Below, one piece after another: positions 24,849-34,029 of a DNA stretch of 49,542 bases (positions are counted from its first letter, which is position 1; every line of letters starts with the position of its first letter). This DNA is from Holosporales bacterium (lineage in GTDB: Bacteria > Pseudomonadota > Alphaproteobacteria > UBA3830 > JAIRMZ01). The notes below the pieces were generated by a model. That model had not been told where the DNA came from and did no database searches. It saw only the letters and a program-made list of their open reading frames with translations. The stretch covers positions 1-49,542 of the forward strand of contig JAISAP010000059.1 in NCBI GenBank assembly GCA_031266655.1, in the 5' to 3' direction. A program made the translations under genes and the position numbers.

Positions 24849-25727
24849 GTGCGAGTCCTCTCTGCCGCCCCTCTCCTTCAAGACATGCTCCCTGAGATTA
24901 GCGCGCGCGTGCAAAAGTTTAGGGCGGGTAGCGGCAGGCCACCGAAAGTTGCATTGATTCGCGTGGGGGACGATCCGGCGAGTACGATCTACCTCAAGAC
25001 CAAAATGAATCGCGCCCACAAGATTGGCATAGACTCAGAGCTCTTTGCGTATCCTGAGGCGGTGGCCGAAGAGGAAGTGGTGGCGCGCATACAACACCTC
25101 AACCAAGAGCCCTCTGTGGATGGCATTTTGGTGCAGTTACCCCTGCCTGACCCTTTGTCGGAAAAGAGCATTCTCGACAAGATTGTACCGGAAAAAGATG
25201 TAGACGGATTGACAACAGTTACGCAGGGACGCCTTTTCCGAGGTGATGCTTGTCTGGCTCCTTGTACAGCGCAGGGGATCGTCCGACTGCTCAAAACGGC
25301 GCATGTCAACATGGCGGGGAAGCATGCCGTTATCGTCGGGCGGTCTCTTATCGTCGGGCGACCGCTGGCCATGATGCTTCTCCACGAGAATTGTACGGTG
25401 ACGGTAGCGCACTCTCAGTCGCGCAATGTTGCCACCTTGTGTCGGGGGGCGGATATCCTGATCTCCTCTGTCGGCAGCCCGGGTTTTGTCACCCCCGAGT
25501 TCGTCAAAGAGGGAGCAACGGTGATCGATGTGGGGATTTCTCGGAGTTGTTCTCCAGATGGGACCAAGTGTGTCGTCGGAGATGTCGATTTCAGGGCCGT
25601 AGCGCCCTTGTGCGAGTTCATCACTCCCGTGCCGGGAGGCGTAGGGCCGATGACGGTAGAATGCCTGATGCAGAACGTTGTGGAGGCGGCGGAACATCTC
25701 TGGAACGGAGGTTCGGCGTCAGAGTAG
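24849..25727 (+). CDS. folD: Bifunctional methylenetetrahydrofolate dehydrogenase/cyclohydrolase
   Basis: DGILVQLPLP, KDVDG, PCTAQG, GRSLIVGRP and ITPVPGGVGPMT. Confidence 0.97.
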   Translation: MRVLSAAPLLQDMLPEISARVQKFRAGSGRPPKVALIRVGDDPASTIYLKTKMNRAHKIGIDSELFAYPEAVAEEEVVARIQHLNQEPSVDGILVQLPLPDPLSEKSILDKIVPEKDVDGLTTVTQGRLFRGDACLAPCTAQGIVRLLKTAHVNMAGKHAVIVGRSLIVGRPLAMMLLHENCTVTVAHSQSRNVATLCRGADILISSVGSPGFVTPEFVKEGATVIDVGISRSCSPDGTKCVVGDVDFRAVAPLCEFITPVPGGVGPMTVECLMQNVVEAAEHLWNGGSASE

Positions 25728-25755
25728 GAGGGCCGATGGCCCTACTCAGGAAAGG

Positions 25756-26697
25756 ATGAAAAAACAGGCAGCAACCACAAAACCGCTCGTGATTGTCGCA
25801 TACGACGCGGAGTGGCCTCGGTTTTTCCATGAGGAAGCCGAAAGAATCAAGGCTTTCATGGGAGAGACGGTTGCAGATCTTCATCATATCGGGTCTACGT
25901 CTGTTCCCGGCCTTTCTGCAAAACCGATCGTGGATATGCTCCTTGTCACGCGTGACCTTGAAGAGGCAAGGCAGCATCTGACCAGTAGTGAGCTGGGATA
26001 TCGGTACAAAGGCGAGTACAATTTGCCTCTGAGGGACTTGTACGGGAAAAGTGGACCGTGCGAGACTTATCTCCATGTTCACCAGGTTGGAAACCCCGAG
26101 ATAGCGTTGAATGTGCTGTTTAGGGATTTTTTGAGAGACCACCGTGATGCCCGCGAACACTATGAGCGTGCCAAGCTGGCCGCTAGCCAATCCAGCGGAG
26201 CCGGAGACAAGGTGGAAGCTGGGATAACACAGTATAACTTGAGGAAAAACGACAGTATTGTCTCTATCTTACGGAATACCGGTTTTGACAGTTTATGTGT
26301 GAGATTTGTGGCGCAGCATAGGGAACACGAGGCTTTTGAGCAGTTCAGGTCGGAGTTCTTCGAGCAAATAGGCGGAGGCGATCTGACAGAAGTTTCTGCG
26401 GAGAGCAAGAAATTTGTCTTGTATCAAGGAACGGAGATCATAGGATCTGCCGGATTGTCTGATGGAGGAGCTGGGAGAGCTTCTATAGATTTTGCGATCT
26501 CTGAGACGCCGGAAGGATTTCTAAGGCTGTTGCAAGTCATTGAGGCTTGGGTAATGCTGAGGATGCAGGCGGATAGTTTGTCCGCTGTCGCGTTGCAGGA
26601 GCAATCCGCACTCTACGTATCAGCCGGCTTTGTCGCCTTGCAGGGTGCTAGGGGTTCTGGGAAGGTGCCTGTATGGAAGAGAATCCTCAACGCTTGA
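25756..26697 (+). CDS. GrpB (UPF0157) family protein with C-terminal extension (possibly GNAT-like)
   Basis: YDAEWP..F..E, HIGSTSVPGLSAKPIVD, HVH, FRDFLR and YERAK; ATG 25756 follows AGGAAAGG. Confidence 0.85.
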   Translation: MKKQAATTKPLVIVAYDAEWPRFFHEEAERIKAFMGETVADLHHIGSTSVPGLSAKPIVDMLLVTRDLEEARQHLTSSELGYRYKGEYNLPLRDLYGKSGPCETYLHVHQVGNPEIALNVLFRDFLRDHRDAREHYERAKLAASQSSGAGDKVEAGITQYNLRKNDSIVSILRNTGFDSLCVRFVAQHREHEAFEQFRSEFFEQIGGGDLTEVSAESKKFVLYQGTEIIGSAGLSDGGAGRASIDFAISETPEGFLRLLQVIEAWVMLRMQADSLSAVALQEQSALYVSAGFVALQGARGSGKVPVWKRILNA

Positions 26698-26755
26698 CCT
26701 TTCTATCGGTTGATCTAGGGGGAGTCTTAATGTGCGCCTGCGCGAGCCTTTCCGC

Positions 26756-27710
26756 TTGATACAGGTGCACCCCTGGGGGTTCCAGCGTAAGACATGTGTA
26801 GATGTATCATCTGTTAGTGTAAGGGCATCTACTGACCCTATAATTTGCTGGAATGGAGCCGATACCGCTCTCTGTAGTTGCAGGTTGTACGTAAGGCGTA
26901 TGTAGGAGTATCCGTCTGGAAGCTTTTATACAAGGTGGTGTTGGTGTATGTGCTCCCTTAATACCAATGTATTCCTTGGAAGGTTATACGTAACGCTGGT
27001 GTAGGGACGTCATCAAGGCCCAGCGGCATTCAGCCGCGGCTGAAGGCGAACGAGGGTTCATAGGCTGTTGGAAAATGTTCTGCGTAGTTACTCTGAACTT
27101 GATACAGATCTCTACAGTTGAAGTTTGTACGTAACGCTGATTTAGGGTTATCGTCGCCTTTGTGACTTTATCAGACCAAAAAAAGGTGTCACAAAGGCCC
27201 CGCGTCCTCTTCTGTGGGATGCGGTTCTCCATACGCCTAATACAGGATATACCTTAAGAGTTTTTACGTAACGCTGGTGTAGAATAACCCGCTTCCACTT
27301 CGATACAAGTGTATTTTTCTAGAGTGCTAGCGTAACGTTGGTGTAGGATCATCTGCGTTGAAGTTTCGGGCACAAGATCTGTGTGGGTGTATCTACTACT
27401 TTGATACCAGTGTATTCCTGGAGGGTTCTAGCGTGACGCTGGTGTGAGTGCATCATTGCCCTTGCGACTGTAGGAATAAATAGAGTTCGCAAGGGCCCCA
27501 CAGCGGTTAGCTGCGGCTATTACGGACTTGGCACAAGAGTTTGCTTTGAAGTTTTTCCCGCAAGACTTATATCGGTGCATCCAGTATCTCAGTACAGAAC
27601 TCTGCAGTTGCAGGTTTTGCGTAACGTTGGTGTAGGAGTATCCACGCCCTCATGACCGCATGTAACAAGCAAGATTGGCATGAGGGCTCCTGCAGCATTG
27701 TGCCGTAGTT
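26756..27710 (+). repeat. Structured non-coding repeat array A (core motif + double hairpin)
   Basis: About 9 copies of RRYAC-N23/24-CGYRA-N6-TGTAG-like cores (starts ~26758, 26861, 26960, 27101, 27239, 27302, 27403, 27530, 27591) and 3 hairpin modules (27156-27198, 27458-27496, 27646-27687). Confidence 0.85.
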
Positions 27711-27887
27711 AAAGTGATAGAAAGGGGCAGTTTTCCCCTTGCCCTGCGTTGTTGAATCCTTCCGCAAGCTCTTTTGACTCCCCCCTTTGTCTTGCTGAGT
27801 CCCGCTACGATCTATGAAGGTACCTCTCCATTGTCTCTACACACTCGAAAGTTTCTCTCTGCAGCTCCTCTCTTTTGATATCGGCCA

Positions 27888-28083
27888 GTTCGGTGCGGCA
27901 TGCATTCTCTCTTTTCTGCGCCGTTCACAGCCCTTTTCTTTCTCCTTGCGACTTATTTTCTCCCAATATACACAGTATTTTTATTATTTCACCTCATTTG
28001 ACAATTTTATTTATTCTTTTTTAACCTATTGCGCATAATTTATTATCCAATACGATAGATTCGTGCAAAAAGGAAGAGAGAAG
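27888..28083 (+). promoter_or_regulatory. Conserved AT-rich upstream region of flgE-like copy 1
   Basis: Near-identical inverted copy at ~32877-33074. Contains TTGACA (27998; CTGACA in copy 2), TTAACC, CATAAT and a purine-rich RBS-like GGAAGAGAGAAG. Confidence 0.65.
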
Positions 28084-29938
28084 ATGTCTTTGTTTAATAC
28101 CATGGGAGTATCTGTAGCAGGATTCCGCGCACAAGCGAAGAGGATGGCTACGATAGCGGATAATGTCAGCAACAGTGACACGATGGGCTATAAGACGCGT
28201 TCAGTTGCCTTCACTCCCCAAATAAATGGCCGGGGGGGGGGGCAGCTCCTTAAATAAAGGAACTTCCAATAATTATCTTCCATTTATTGGCAATAATAAT
28301 TCTTCTTCCAATTCTAGCTACTCCAGCTCTGGCGTTTCTGCACATATGCTAATGCATCTCCAAGAGCAAGGAGAGCTACAGCGCACCGACCGTCCTCTAG
28401 ATCTTGCCGTAGACGGAGAGGGCTTACTCCTCGTTAAAGACAAAAGCGGAGCCCTCGGAGGTGCCAGGACAGGAACCTTCCATGTTACTAAAGAAGGGCT
28501 TATTCAAGACGCACAAGGCCTCACCCTCCAAGGCTGGCCTTTACTGCCAGAAGGAACCGCAGGATCTAGTTCTGCAAAAGCTGCTGCGACCCAGGCTGTC
28601 CAATCTGCTCCGCCCCCTTCCTCTGCTACTGCTGTAGGCTCTCTGGGAGACCTTGAAGACGTCCATCTCCTCCTTCCACCAGGAGAGGTCTCCGCCTCTA
28701 CCGCGAAGGCATCGCACCCTCATGAGTCCCGCTTTAGGGAAACAGGATTAACAATCCAAAAGCAAGATGATGGTCTGTACTCTCTCTGTAACTCCGAGAT
28801 CCAGGTGAACGGCTTTTACGAAAGTACTTATGCCCAGCACACCTTTGTGGACTCTCTCGGGAGTGAACGCGTAGTAGATATAAAAGTGCAGAAGCTTCCG
28901 CATCCATCTCCCTCCACGTCCTTTTTTCTTCAATCTTCCGGTCTTGATGCAGAACTTGTATTACGTGCCGATGGGGTCTTGCAATGCGAAGCGGGGTGCA
29001 CTTTTGACAATACCACCAAGCAGGTGACTGTTACCTTCCCTGATACCGGGGCAGAGTTAACGCTCGACATAAGCAACGTCCAAATGCCCATGGGGAGCTG
29101 TTCCCCTCCCACCTCTGAAGGTGTCTTCTCTTGGGACTTTCCCCCCATGATTCTTGAAAAGGGTACCTATCTTGTAGAACATATGCTCATTCTCGACCAT
29201 CATGACGTGTGGGGTATTTCCGGTATGGCTTTGCTGGTAAAAAAGAACGAGGATGGCTCCTTTGGGGGGACCCTCTATGAAGGGGACGTCCGTATAGATC
29301 TCCACTTCGATGACCATGGTTGGGTATCGAGTTATAAGTTCACGCATAACGGCAACAATGAAAGTGTAGGGATCGAACAGACCGGAGAGATCATAAAGGG
29401 GGTGAACTTCGGCAACGGCGCTACCACAATCGACATCGATTTGAGTGCCTTTCGGCTGATCAATAGGACGGGCTCCAATCTCGTCGTCAATGGAAACACC
29501 ATAAAGCCAGTCGACTCCTCTGGAGAGGATGAAACTGCCGGTGCCGTTTCTGGAGATGCTCTCTCAGGGAGCTCCCTCACTGCGGTTCCACCTCCACCTT
29601 CTTCTCTTTCTATCGACGAGAACGGCGTATTAAGTCGTCTTAAGGATAACGGAGACTGGGAGCCACTCTACCTCCTGACCTGCTGTCAGTTTGCAGCGAT
29701 GAACGCTGCAGAAGAACGTAATGGCGTCTACTACGCGACTCCCGCCTCAGGGGTTCTCCGAACTGGAGTCTCGGGGCAAGAAGGCATGGGGACGATCACT
29801 GCGGGCACTCTAGAACGCTCCACCACAGACCTCGCCCATGAACTCTCCGAAATGATCAAAGCCCAACACGCCTACGCTGCTAATACCAAAGTCCTCTCTA
29901 CCATCGACGATATGCTCACAGAGCTCGAGAGATTGTAG
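28084..29938 (+). pseudogene. flgE: Flagellar hook FlgE-like protein, copy 1, out of frame at G11 (phase-variable candidate)
   Basis: N-terminus MSLFNTMGVSVAGF...IADNVSNSDTMGYK; DLAVDGEG, RTGTF and LQGWP; C-terminus LERSTTDLAHELSEMIKAQHAYAANTKV. G11 at 28232-28242 leads to a stop at 28257; G10 or G13 restores the frame. Confidence 0.85.
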
Positions 29939-29957
29939 AGGAGAGGGGGGAGAACTC

Positions 29958-30870
29958 AGCAGCGCCACCTGTTGTGGAGCAACTGATACAGACTTAGTAG
30001 GAGCGTTTACGCTGAAGTTTTTCTTACAAGACGTACATCGGTGTGTTTGCTACCTTAATACAAGTGTGTTCCTCGAGAGTTCTAGCGTAACGTTGGTGTA
30101 GAGTTATCGTTAGCCTTTGTGCCCTTACTAAACTGGATTAATGTCACAAAGGCCCCGCGCCCTTTGTGGGGCGCGGTTATCTCATGAGCTCAGCACAAGC
30201 GTTTATGTTGAAGTTTTTCTTGCAAGATCTGTGCAGGCACGTCCGCCACCTTCATACAAGTGTCCTGCTAGGGACTCTAGCTTAATGTTGGTGTAGGGTC
30301 ACCGTCGCCCTTGCGTCCACTCAAGGTGGACAGGGTTCGCAAGGGCCGCTGCGGCATCATGGCGCGGCTACCATGGACTTAATACGGGTGTACCCCTCTG
30401 AAGTTTGAGTGCAAGGCCTACATCTATGTTCTTGCGCCAACTGAAAGTGAATACGATCCGCAAAGGCTCCGCGTCCCCTTCTATGGGGCGCGGTTATTAC
30501 GGATTCAGTATAGATGTTTATGCTGCGGCTTTGATCGTAGAACGTATATCGGAACGTCTACCACCTCCATACAAGTGCACTGCTAGGGATTCTAGCGTAA
30601 CGCTGGTGTAAAAGGAGCATTGCCCTCATGACCTTATTTTGTAGCAAAAGATGGCATGAGGGCCCTGCGCCCTTATAGGGCGCGGTCGAAAGTGAATGGA
30701 GCTCTACATACTTCTGACAAGTGCTCGGTGCAGCCACGTGGACCTCCATACAAGAGTACTTCTTCAGAGTTCTAGCGTAACGTTGGTGTAGGATTATCAT
30801 CGCCTTTGTGCCATGATCAATTCAAACAAAGCGCACAAAGACTCCGCGCCATCTATTATGGCGCGGTTCA
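29958..30870 (+). repeat. Structured non-coding repeat array B between the convergent flgE-like 3' ends
   Basis: Two core variants largely alternate (CGTAACGYTGGTGTA at 30086, 30596, 30776; TGAAGTTT..CAAG type at ~29996, 30192, 30381). Five double-hairpin modules at 30113, 30307, 30431, 30622 and 30802; full units are ~180-195 bp. Confidence 0.87.
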
Positions 30871-31053
30871 AGGGGTAGGAAGGGCCGTTCTTCTCTTTGT
30901 CCTGCGTTTCTGGACCTCTCCGCAAACTCTCCTAGTGCTCTCTTTGTCTTGCATTGCTGGACCTCTCCGCAAGCTCCCCTAACTCTTCCCTTTACCCCTT
31001 AACTCTCTTCCGTCACTTCTTTGCAACCCCCGCTCTCTACTTCCATCCACCCT

Positions 31054-32876
31054 CTACAATCTCTCGAGCTCTGTGAGCATATCGTCGAGGGTAGAGAGGA
31101 CTTTGGTATTAGCAGCGTAGGCGTGTTGGGCGCGGATCATGTCGGAGAGCTCATGGGCGAGGTTCGTGGTGGAGCGCTCCAGGGTGCCCGCAGTAATCGT
31201 TCCCATGCCGTCTTTTCCGGAGATTCCGGTTCGGAGGGCTCCTGAGGCGGGAGTCGCGTAGTAGACGCCATTGCGCTCCTCTGCAGAATTCATCGCGGCA
31301 AACTGACCGCAAGCGAGGAGATAAATGGGCTCCCAATCTCCGTTATCTTTAAGACGCTTCAATACGCCGTTCTCGTCAATGGAGAGAGAGGAAGGAGAAA
31401 CCATGGCGGAGGAAGCCTCCGATAGGGAGGCTCCAGAAGCAGTACGAGCGCTCCCAGCGTTTCCTGGGGAAACCTCTGGCTTGATGGTGGCTCCGTTAAC
31501 TACGAGAGCCGAATCTGTTCGGTTGACGATACGAAAAGCGCTGAAATCGATATGGATAGTGTCGTAGTCGGTGTCACTTTTGACAAAGTGTATCCCTTCC
31601 ACGACGGATCCAGTCTGTTCCGTCCCTACGCTTGGATCGTCGGTACTACCCCCGTTCTTCGTGAATTGATAGCCCGAAACCCAGCCGTCTGCATCAAAAT
31701 AAAGCTCCACGTCAAAGCCGTAGCTTTCATTATACAACTTCCCCGTGAAAGAACCGCCCTCATTCCTTTTTACCATCCATCGGATCTCGGGGGAGGATTC
31801 TAGGACTTGGGAGATTTTACAGGTCCCCTCCTCGAAGATCATGGGGAAAAAGTTCCAAGACAGGGTACCCCCAGAGGGAGGAAGAGAGTAGTGGGTTCCA
31901 CCGCTTGGGAGGTGGCTTATGTCGAGCGTTAGCTGCGCTTCAGTATCGGGGAAGGTCACCGTCATCTGCTTGGTGGCGTTATCAAAAGTGCAAAAGCTTA
32001 AATCGGCGCGGCTCTCGTCCGCCCAATATTCGCACACCGCGGTTTGGTGGAGGTCGGCAGATTTCAGGGTAGTGCGCGTACCATCAGAACACTGCCACAC
32101 ATCTATTTCGACGGTATGCTTGTTCCCGAGGGAGTCCACAAGGTTCTTCTGCAGGGTAAACGATTCGTAGAAGCCATCCGTGTGGGTTGTGGAGCTGTGA
32201 AAGGAGTACAGGCCGTCAACTTCCTTTTGTATGGTGGGGCCGGTTCCATAGGGGATGGACGCTTTCGCACTGGTTACTTCTGGCTTGATAAGTTGGATAT
32301 CCTCAAGGTCTCCCAAAGAGCCTGCAAAGGCAGCGGAAGGAGGTGGAGCAACCTTGGCTGTCTGAGCTGCAGCTGCTTCCGGCAGCAAGGGCCAGCCTTG
32401 GAGAGTAAGACCTTGTGCGTTTTGGATCAGCCCTTCTTTCGTAACTTGGAAAGTGCCTGTTCTCGCTCCTCCGAGGGTGCCGCTTTTGTCTCTAACCAGG
32501 AGTAAGCCCTCTCCGTCTACGGCAAGGTCTAAAGGCCGATCGGTGCGTTGTAGCTCTCCCTGTGCTTGGAGATGCATTAAAGTGTGCGCAGAGACCCCGG
32601 AGCTGGAGTAGAGAGATCTGGCACTGGAGGGGGAACCGGAACTCCCTATCAAAGAATTGGAAGAATTATTGTTGCCAATAGAGAGAAAGAAATCTCCTTT
32701 ACTTAAGGAACTTCCCCCCCCCCCCCCCGGCAATTTATTTGGGGAGTAAAGGCAAGTGATCGCACCTTATAGCCCATCGTGTCACTGTTGCTCACATTGT
32801 CCGCTATCGTAGCCATCCTCTTCGCCTGCGCGCGGAATCCAGCGACAGATACTCTCATGGTATTAAACAAGGACAT
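31054..32876 (-). pseudogene. flgE: Flagellar hook FlgE-like protein, copy 2, out of frame at G15 (phase-variable candidate)
   Basis: ATG at 32876 gives MSLFNTMRVSVAGFRAQAKRMATIADNVSNSDTMGYK...INCRGGGGEVP-stop. The C15 run is at 32714-32728; 13 or 16 would join the 559-aa downstream ORF that carries the FlgE C-terminal motif. Confidence 0.85.
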
Positions 32877-33074
32877 CTTCTCTCTTCCTGCATGTACGAA
32901 TCTATCGTATTGGATAATAAATTATGCGCAATAGGTTAAAAAAGAATAAATAAAATTGTCAGATGAGGTGAAATAATAAAAATACTGTGTATGTTAGGAG
33001 AAAATAAGGGCAGAAAGAAAAAAGAAAAGAGCTGTGAACGGCGCGGAAAAGAGAGAACGCATGCTGCATCGAAC
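32877..33074 (-). promoter_or_regulatory. Conserved AT-rich upstream region of flgE-like copy 2
   Basis: Inverted near-identical copy of 27888-28083. Confidence 0.65.
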
Positions 33075-33094
33075 CAGAAGGTGCCAAATGATGC

Positions 33095-33505
33095 CTCTAC
33101 ACCAGCGTTGCACAAAAAAACTTTGCAGTAGATTCCCGTCCTAGGTCTATAATGGCCGCGGCCCAATACCGCGGTGGCCCTATGCCATCCTTTCTGTTAT
33201 AGGTAGTCATGAGGGCGTGGACGCAATTACATAGGCCTTACGTATCACTTGCAACTGCAGATACCTGTATCGAGGCTGATAACCGCGCCACAATAAGTGG
33301 CGCAGGGCCTTTGTGACATAAATCCATTGCAAATATGGTCACAAAGGCGATGATGCCACTACAGACATCTTACGTACAACCTGCAACTACAGATATCTGT
33401 ATCGAGGTTGATAGTAACCGCGGTATGATGCCGCGGGGCCCTTGCGAAGTCTATTGACTACAGAACGCAAGGGCAATGGTCCCCCTACATCAGCGTTATG
33501 AAAAG
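33095..33505 (-). repeat. Structured non-coding repeat array C (inverted relative to A and B)
   Basis: Reverse-complement cores at ~33097-33142, 33226-33271, 33359-33403 and 33485-33499. Hairpins at 33177-33216, 33307-33348 and 33438-33474, each paired with a CCGCG-type hairpin; ~130-bp period. Confidence 0.85.
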
Positions 33506-33546
33506 AGCCCATGAATTCACCAAAACTCATGCAGTATGCTCGTCCC

Positions 33547-34029
33547 CTAAAAGCGGCGATCTTTTTCGCCTTTCAGGACTCCCCAGGTTTGCGAGCGGTG
33601 GAGCCATCCCGTGAGGCGCTCGACCTTCACGCGCAGCCAATCACCGCGGATCTCTTGAAGTTGCGCAGAAGTGCCCGGTTCAAGATAGGCTACAACCTGC
33701 GCATCTGCACTGGGTTTGTCCAGCAGAGAGTGTGTTTTCTCTATGACGAGAGCGCTTCTGCGCATAGTAAGCATGTTTTGGTGAATCCACCCCTCCTCGC
33801 CCTCCGCATCCTGGATTTTGCGCCAAATGCCGACTTCTGCGAGGACAATGAGGGGAATTCCAGAGCGCACGAATTTCCAAGACAAAGGGTACTGTCTTCC
33901 TGGTCCGACACGAACATTGGCCTCCTGCGCCCTCAGCGTGACTGCATACGGAAGAACCGGCGTGGTTTGTGCATACGTAACGGCGTCCCCTAACGCTAGC
34001 AGAAAGGCTATCCGTATCCTCAGACGCAT
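33547..34029 (-). CDS. Bacterial SH3 domain protein (two SH3-like repeats)
   Basis: Signal peptide; ANVRVGPG..YP, WRKIQDAEGEEGWIHQNML and GWLHRSQTWG. The ATG overlaps the dut stop. Confidence 0.88.
   Translation of the reverse strand: MRLRIRIAFLLALGDAVTYAQTTPVLPYAVTLRAQEANVRVGPGRQYPLSWKFVRSGIPLIVLAEVGIWRKIQDAEGEEGWIHQNMLTMRRSALVIEKTHSLLDKPSADAQVVAYLEPGTSAQLQEIRGDWLRVKVERLTGWLHRSQTWGVLKGEKDRRF

Follow-up and report, generated by a model that had tools for sequence, protein, structure and literature searches.

Inward-facing arrays of a folded modular repeat around expanded FlgE-like genes in a Holosporales genome

Why does a Holosporales bacterium carry rows of hairpins on either side of its hook-like genes? 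The question is raised by a window of 49,542 nt (the whole of contig JAISAP010000059.1, assembly GCA_031266655.1), in which two FlgE-like genes lie among eleven hairpins of three stem types. A first-pass annotation of this DNA had proposed that selection acts on the structure of the hairpins and that their loops might be guides, protein-binding determinants or neutral sequence. It had missed about six degenerate or half units in the window, that the hairpins are parts of a larger unit, that the family is genome-wide and that the modular repeat has a polar arrangement around a large flgE-like gene family. We tentatively favour the reading that these are REP/BIME-like modular elements, selectively maintained, whose arrays may mark the borders of contingency genes in a polar and strand-specific way, as terminators or insulators. 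The hairpin repeats are more likely to be boundary signals than guides.

None of the hairpins is free-standing: each is hairpin 1 (HP1) of a modular unit of 125-130 nt. Module L, the 5' part, consists of an ATAC box, about 24 variable nucleotides (N24), a nearly invariant conserved motif of 13-15 nt (GCGTAACGYTGRTGTAG), a few bases and ATC. Module R consists of HP1, whose 9-bp stem closes a loop of about 22 nt, and, after it, HP2 and TTAY; the pentamer TGTAG is located about 10 nt 5' of HP1. HP2 is a GC-rich hairpin of 6-10 bp. Its stem runs uninterrupted for at least 6 bp in 190 of 252 units; its arms come in 115 distinct sequences, and its loops are mostly of 3-5 nt. The HP1 stems of 258 full units fall into class A (GCCTTTGTG, 99 units), class B (GCCCTTGCG, 49), class b (GCTCTTGCG, 34) and class C (GCCCTCATG, 41), leaving 35 unclassified, and these four types differ from one another by transitions alone. 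Two further helices, one between ATAC and the GTGT of the conserved motif and the other between GTAAC and GTTAY, are complementary in the consensus, but they pair only as often as the make-up of their columns predicts, and the second shows no covariation; both were rejected. RNAalifold, run on each stem family, found no helix within the loops.

A profile built from 111 copies (nhmmer) finds 371 matches on 60 of the 80 contigs of the 1.29-Mb, 53% GC assembly (G000), a Holosporales-like metagenome-assembled genome (MAG) of a termite-gut symbiont that is 92.7% complete. These comprise 277 full units, 46 L-only and 26 R-only matches and 22 other partials, and together the family occupies 47.3 kb, or 3.66% of the assembly. 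The units are grouped head to tail in 102 arrays of up to 11 units each. An open reading frame (ORF) from a crude survey is overlapped by more than half of the match in 56 of the 371 cases; in the contig maps viewed, these are short ORFs inside arrays.

The arrays are polar with respect to the hook-like genes. Thirty-nine of the 102 lie within 700 nt of an flgE-like locus and 51 at contig ends, 7 of them doing both and 19 neither. Units upstream of flgE-like genes lie on the gene's strand rather than the opposite strand by 47:2. Downstream, the opposite strand prevails over the gene's strand by 77:16, and the 16 same-strand units sit between neighbouring cassettes, where they face the next gene. 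Contig-end units point outward by 141:7, as would be expected if the assembly tends to break within the conserved 5' parts of paralogs. Whichever way a gene runs, the arrays on its two sides are both directed at the cassette. The window has the same layout: array A and FlgE-like gene 1 run rightwards, as does array B beyond them, and FlgE-like gene 2 and then array C run leftwards.

Array A (26757..27716, + strand), delimited by nhmmer matches, covariance-model matches and unit alignment, points with all its units towards gene 1. It has three full units at 27100-27229 (stem A), 27402-27521 (B) and 27590-27713 (C), degenerate units at 26757-26818, 26860-26930 and 26959-27044, and half units lacking hairpins at 27230-27284 and 27292-27362. 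Array B (30056..30871, + strand; alignment and covariance model) points towards the 3' end of gene 2 and consists of units at 30056-30181 (A), 30252-30372 (B), 30380-30498 (degenerate B), 30567-30690 (C) and 30746-30871 (A). Array C (33088..33530, - strand; nhmmer, alignment and covariance model) points towards the promoter side of gene 2, with units at 33413-33530 (B), 33278-33404 (A) and 33151-33272 (C, with a defective stem) and a half unit at 33088-33140. A pyrimidine-rich module at the 3' end of array A (27729..27788, + strand), found by repeat search, resembles two copies at 30887-30993. At both places there is a second repeat of about 47 nt (CTTTGTCCTGCG..CCGCAAAC type) with a short palindrome of its own, which sits in the pyrimidine-rich module between arrays and genes and is found downstream of most paralogs.

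All eleven hairpins were read directly in 26800-33800, at positions within 1-3 nt of those first reported. Nine have an intact 9-bp stem and two are degenerate (30428-30467, and 33177-33216 with a 1-nt arm defect). Type A stems (GCCTTTGTG) are at 27156-27198, 30113-30153, 30802-30842 and 33307-33348, the third of these with one mismatch (..CACAAAGAC). Type B stems (GCCCTTGCG) are at 27458-27496, 30307-30346, 30428-30467 and 33439-33474, the degenerate one reading GTTCTTGCG/CGCAAAGGC, and type C stems (GCCCTCATG) are at 27646-27687, 30622-30663 and 33177-33216. A second hairpin of the form CYGCG..CGCGG, which is HP2, directly abuts each HP1 in the window, as had been noted. The earlier statement that every array contains all three stem types holds for the three window arrays but not for every array of the genome.

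Compensatory changes had been reported for the window hairpins and are indeed present: in the alignment of the eleven window units, double changes preserve pairs in 6 of the 15 predicted pairs. The stem pattern occurs far more often than chance would give: with one further base fixed, a search found it 4 times, compared with 0 in 100 shuffles. RNA folding z-scores were between -3.1 and -6.4 for four units on the unit strand, and -3.65 and -3.98 for two on the opposite strand. In 150 genomic units, aligned with a covariance model built on the window units, 95.8% of cells are paired compared with 86.7% in shuffles, and changes on both sides affect 281 cells compared with 111 (0 of 500 shuffles as high in either case); these figures are not probabilities, because the alignment is fitted to the model and the copies are related. 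Sliding the partners in the same alignment gives 31-54% pairing. Pairing and compensatory change are strongly supported.

The mismatches distinguish the two strands. In a structure-blind profile alignment of the 258 full units, read on the unit strand, HP2 has 154 mismatches of G:T type against 63 of A:C type, and HP1 has 119 against 91. Departures from consensus at unpaired conserved columns lean the opposite way to this wobble excess. The position that separates stem types B and b (GCCC versus GCTC) shows 18 T:G and 4 C:A combinations in the model-fitted alignment. Because the excess of wobble pairs is on the unit strand, it is this strand that would fold in single-stranded form, as RNA or as single-stranded DNA. 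There is thus moderate evidence, drawn from sequence comparison, that one strand, the unit strand, folds, which is not as expected for duplex half-sites.

Duplex half-sites are what the HP arms would be if the units were double-stranded DNA sites for a sequence-specific protein, such as a silencer or a nucleoid boundary protein, with module L as a further site. Four discrete stem sequences kept identical across two genera, a near-invariant motif of 13-15 nt and the position of the arrays at the borders of silent (frame-off) genes would all suit such a protein. In a duplex, however, the T:G and C:A classes should be equal, and the observed 154:63 and 18:4 favour wobble on one strand; moreover, the structure of HP2 is kept with 115 different arm sequences, and no candidate protein was found. 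We regard duplex sites as distinctly unlikely.

The copies appear old, and their stems have been kept. Within a stem family, identity is 0.94-0.96 for the 5' arm and 0.81-0.91 for the 3' arm, which was not used in defining the families, and this pattern of divergence is independent of the model-fitted alignment. Loop identity is 0.55-0.63 within families and 0.47 between them, N24 identity is 0.48 and the mean over whole units is 0.58. The original proposal that selection acts on structure finds support here, with stems 81-96% identical within families compared with 55-63% for loops and 58% for whole units, double changes that keep pairing, and the same three stems in a second genus. Among 33,153 unit pairs only one reaches at least 0.90 identity, and that pair is the overlap of two contig ends. 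Neighbours within an array resemble each other no more than units paired at random do (0.571 versus 0.578, 154 pairs), the closest relative of a unit is in another array and not adjacent, and 1 of 152 adjacent pairs is colinear. We rejected block duplication of arrays on this last count and because the stem types have no fixed order. The identity of module L is independent of the HP1 family, and the modules have therefore been reshuffled. No clear gradient of growth or decay was seen along the arrays (89.8 bits for proximal units, 72.4 bits for the most distal). The retention of stems while loops, N24 and whole units diverged, without recent copies, points to old copies whose cores were kept site by site. 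As judged from these comparisons, the family is an old, selectively maintained set of modular intergenic repeats with no recent burst.

These observations bear on the possibility that the arrays are ends, relic or still functional, of mobile flgE cassettes. A transposase or recombinase would then read the rows of oriented binding units at the two ends, which are inverted relative to each other, an arrangement that resembles the multi-site ends of Tn7- or Mu-type transposons or REP with RAYT (REP-associated tyrosine transposase). Inverted arrays enclose each dispersed paralog, half units occur alone, the TGTAG about 10 nt 5' of HP1 is reminiscent of the GTAG found in REP, and the lack of colinearity and the distant closest relatives described above are as mobility would have them. 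After an SH3 gene, moreover, the orthologous place in two relatives has no unit and a different neighbour, gene order diverging beyond the SH3 gene such that an empty orthologous site is not definable. Against mobility, no enzyme of the Y1, IS110, serine, rve or DDE_Tnp_1 type is present in the assembly (MAGs may fail to include insertion sequences), the one or two Xer-like tyrosine recombinases occur in every relative, with or without arrays, and about 19 arrays have no gene. There are no recent unit copies, and conserved cores on a 58%-identity background speak of maintenance rather than decay. Mobile ends are, on balance, unlikely.

Two of 41 genomes searched contain the family, this one included. 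The other (G003) is a MAG of another genus of Holosporales, whose units have the same three stems, related loops and a somewhat different L motif (GCGTAAG..TGTGTAG). On contig C53 of G003 (L034 3639-4216), the two units of one assembled pair point at each other over a gap of only about 290 nt that contains no gene; most other units of G003 are at contig ends and point outward. The hairpin pattern matched no other species representative, the G000-type pattern had 0 matches in the genome contig collection, two unit patterns had 0 in JGI metagenome contigs, and array B had none in phages or plasmids. Rfam recognised only two tRNAs in the window and nothing better than E = 7 in 26800-33600. At the level of literature listings and abstracts, we found no description of these repeats or of expanded flgE families. 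This is a new, lineage-restricted family of structured repeats. Logan contigs of one DNA dataset match the window without differences, and the many joints derive from other copies of the repeat.

What the arrays enclose is a family of hook-type genes. Gene 1 (28084..29938, + strand; Pfam domains, sequence and a frame survey) has an N-terminal segment at 28084-28257, a G11 tract at 28232-28242 and a main frame at 28226-29938, the two frames being out of register in the assembly. Gene 2 (31054..32876, - strand; Pfam, sequence and the inverted repeats I1-I3 that it has in common with gene 1) has a homopolymer tract of 15 nt at 32714-32728 and a main ORF at 31054-32733, with its N-terminal segment likewise out of frame with the main ORF. 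Both are of hook type, with Flg_bb_rod at the N terminus, a FlgE/F/G D1 domain and Flg_bbr_C. The 3' flank module (T) of gene 2 (30873..31053, - strand), which is purine-rich on the gene strand, gave 24 high-scoring segment pairs by blastn, all just downstream of flgE-like genes except two contig-end fragments (C38, C49). Most paralogs thus have a version of this purine-rich module in their 3' flank.

In the whole genome, tblastn finds 42 FlgE-related loci, 26 of them longer than 1.4 kb, compared with 1-6 matches in each relative. The expanded family is spread over contigs C6, C17, C20, C23, C29, C30, C34, C35, C39, C43 and C45, and also C46, C56, C61, C63, C65, C67, C68, C72, C75 and C77. The paralogs have conserved ends and variable middles. 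A run of 10-16 G stands at the same place, near codon 50, in 20 of the 26 long paralogs. A crude script could locate the N-terminal segment in 17 loci, and in 16 of these it does not share a frame with the main ORF (the C61 locus, counted among the 16, is ambiguous). Given the poly-G tracts and the out-of-frame N-terminal segments, the FlgE-like paralogs look like poly-G-switched contingency genes, most of them turned off. No octamer of the genome is more over-represented than G8 (418 versus 292 expected), and Logan contigs contain length variants beside the tract of gene 2, which could derive from paralogs.

The two window genes have 81-93% identity over promoter and 5' end (inverted repeats 27871-28242 versus 32718-33091) and 87% at the 3' end (29597-29941 versus 31051-31395), and in their middles the encoded proteins have only about 60% identity. 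Such a mosaic suggests that sequence has been exchanged at the conserved ends. All 5 genomes of the family (G000-G004) have the flagellar export gate FlhA, and Flagellin_N had no match in any of them, so the hook may be the outermost structure, or the apparatus may be used for export. Sigma-54 is also present in all five. Outside the cassettes, array A is adjoined by a GrpB-family gene (25678-26697) that, with this query, has no match in the four nearest relatives, and gene order past the SH3 gene differs from that of G003, where an L11-like gene (recognised by eye) comes next.

If the loops were guides, as the first-pass annotation had allowed, they should find targets among these genes or elsewhere. 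The longest exact match between a loop and the flgE-like genes (about 51 kb) is 12 nt, compared with up to 15 nt in ten control gene sets of equal size. Against the array-masked genome, loops give 128, 38 and 7 matches at k = 12-14, compared with 142, 49 and 12.6 for shuffled loops, and at k = 15 they give 5 compared with 2.8, several of them from mis-called loops. N24 gives 123 matches compared with 95 shuffled at k = 12 and 6 compared with 1.2 at k = 15, a small excess that probably stems from unmasked degenerate units. As loop and N24 matches are no better than in the controls, the guide idea fails. The behaviour of the loops is that of weakly constrained or near-neutral sequence.

The same searches weaken the reading that each unit is a small-RNA gene, with module L as the promoter, HP1 and HP2 as the transcript and a loop that pairs with targets. 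Its layout is apt: the 5' block is conserved, about 75 nt are structured, and HP2 resembles a terminator. The strand that it would transcribe is also the one that folds. Neither loops nor N24, however, have excess matches to the flgE-like genes or the rest of the genome, array B is unmatched in phages and plasmids, and no Rfam family was hit. Module L showed, by eye, no sigma-70, sigma-54 or ECF-type spacing, and a promoter scan was at chance (6 versus 6.2). We consider small-RNA genes highly improbable.

Boundary elements fit the arrangement better. Border location, polarity towards the cassette, strand-specific folding and the terminator-like shape of HP2, preserved in more than 100 sequences, together argue for oriented boundary elements that would act through the folded strand. 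On this proposal, the unit strand would fold single-stranded, most likely as RNA from polymerases heading towards the cassette, and each unit would be a weak polar terminator or RNA-end module (HP1-HP2-UUAY). Rows of units would stop read-through and so shield each contingency gene against transcription that enters from either side. Such a block would prevent sense activation or antisense interference and leave the state of the gene to its own poly-G switch, and the loops would be spacers, not guides.

Several observations weigh against terminator-like boundaries. The stem and loop of HP2 fit the form of an intrinsic terminator, but its tail is only TTAY, without a canonical U-tract, and a terminator scan of 26500-34000 returned 9 sites compared with 7.1 expected, none of which is HP2 on the unit strand. 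HP1 shows only a small excess of wobble pairs, and no RNA run containing the window DNA was found. Genes outside the arrays point towards them for 68 units and away for 73 (crude gene map), so that incoming transcription is not guaranteed. G003 has arrays but no assembled flgE expansion. Finally, the conserved module L and four discrete HP1 stems would be superfluous for a plain terminator and point to a sequence-specific reader. An RfaH-like specialised NusG was also considered and rejected, there being one NusG per genome.

Another possibility is that the arrays govern how breaks in the cassette are repaired. AddAB-type resection moving outward would meet GCTGGTGT, which lies within the conserved motif, on the 3'-ended strand in active orientation, and the surviving 3' tails would fold. 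By the orientation rule of Chi, which follows from the RecBCD/AddAB mechanism, both flanking arrays are correctly oriented, the folding strand is the would-be 3' tail, and the genome has RecA and a full-length AddA-like gene (below the NCBIfam curated cut-off). The octamer matches 7 of the 8 bases of E. coli Chi as printed in published abstracts; according to PMC8022716, the Chi of alphaproteobacterial AddAB is not established. Against this, GCTGGTGT is not enriched outside the arrays (41 versus 49.9 expected, rank 60,658 of 65,536) and is not kept in G003, where the motif reads GCGTAAG..TGTGTAG; units at 58% identity are too diverged to serve as homology arms; and the likeness to Chi emerged post hoc, in the course of trying several well-known motifs. 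Control of break repair is very unlikely.

Returning to boundary arrays, a wider version of that reading, which we consider doubtful, is that the repeats are cis-acting boundary elements of an undescribed variation system, in which about 30 poly-G-switched FlgE-like cassettes would be flanked by inward-facing folding rows that act as polar traps, stopping either RNA polymerase or the resection of ends at a break in the cassette. If so, each hook variant could be switched or replaced without involving its neighbours. Host-restricted bacteria with reduced genomes would be expected to lose repeats, and here 3.7% of a reduced genome is one family of folded repeats; at hundreds of sites its cores have persisted as the surrounding sequence diverged, which argues for function rather than junk. 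The strict orientation towards phase-variable hook genes ties REP-like elements to contingency loci in a concrete and testable way, and would, if the boundary reading is true, make a clear case of REP-like repeats acting as oriented gene boundaries. The interest of the repeats rests largely on this tie to an expanded, switchable hook-gene family, itself unusual biology in an organism without detectable flagellin.

How do these repeats compare with known systems? No currently active mobile element is apparent, as far as the assembly shows. A MITE of the Correia type was rejected, as the 5-nt GTAAC/GTTAY complement lacks covariation, no pair of units reaches at least 90% identity bar the contig-end overlap, and none of the mobile-element enzymes listed above was found; target-site duplications were not looked at. 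CRISPR was rejected because the units abut, their variable parts are related between copies and Rfam has no match; cas genes were not searched for. A diversity-generating retroelement or retron was rejected on 0 matches to PF00078 in G000 and G003 and on loops and N24 that are unlike the flgE-like genes.

The attC sites of chromosomal integrons, such as the Vibrio repeats, are co-oriented sites of 60-140 nt that keep structure rather than sequence and of which one strand folds. Our units resemble them in their co-oriented arrays, kept structure and single folding strand. We rejected attC because there are 102 arrays rather than one, no ORFs lie between units, and the Xer-like PF00589 genes number two in 4 of 5 genomes and one in G004, with or without arrays, and no integron integrase is present. 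Ter sites, KOPS and Chi are oriented motifs of 8-23 nt that face a site from both sides on the scale of the chromosome. They share with our repeats the convergence of oriented elements on a place, but here folded units of 125 nt converge on each of about 26 or more genes. A Chi site as such was rejected on the abundance outside arrays and the lack of conservation in G003 described above.

By analogy, the nearest in kind appear to be REP/BIME, BOX-type modular intergenic repeats and the Rickettsia palindromic elements (RPEs). REP/BIME of enterobacteria and REPINs of Pseudomonas are built of REPs of 20-40 nt whose partners alternate in orientation and are associated with a RAYT (Y1) transposase, and roles of REP/BIME in termination and mRNA stability have been reported. 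The likeness lies in intergenic location, hundreds of copies, palindromic hairpins, mosaics and a 5' motif ending in GTAG. The units described here differ from REP in being 125-130 nt long, with two hairpins and a conserved 5' module, head to tail and facing one gene family. REP with RAYT was rejected, PF01797 having 0 matches in G000 while control genomes were matched, and so were REP doublets, since TGTAG lies about 10 nt before a 40-nt hairpin and the units run head to tail instead of forming inverted doublets.

BOX elements of Streptococcus pneumoniae consist of A, B and C boxes, the middle one repeated, over 100-200 nt, and are intergenic, folded and without a transposase of their own. 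Our repeats are likewise modular, intergenic, strongly folded and without their own transposase, but they are unrelated in sequence and form arrays of up to 11 units, whereas BOX elements are dispersed singly and are not known to be polar around one gene family. RPEs are dispersed elements of 100-150 nt that are often inserted in frame into genes. They are, like the repeats described here, palindromic repeats of host-restricted alphaproteobacteria with small genomes, but our units are intergenic and arrayed. Three features are unusual: the unit has two hairpins and a conserved 5' module, its head-to-tail arrays are long and, most strikingly, the arrays converge on each member of one gene family.

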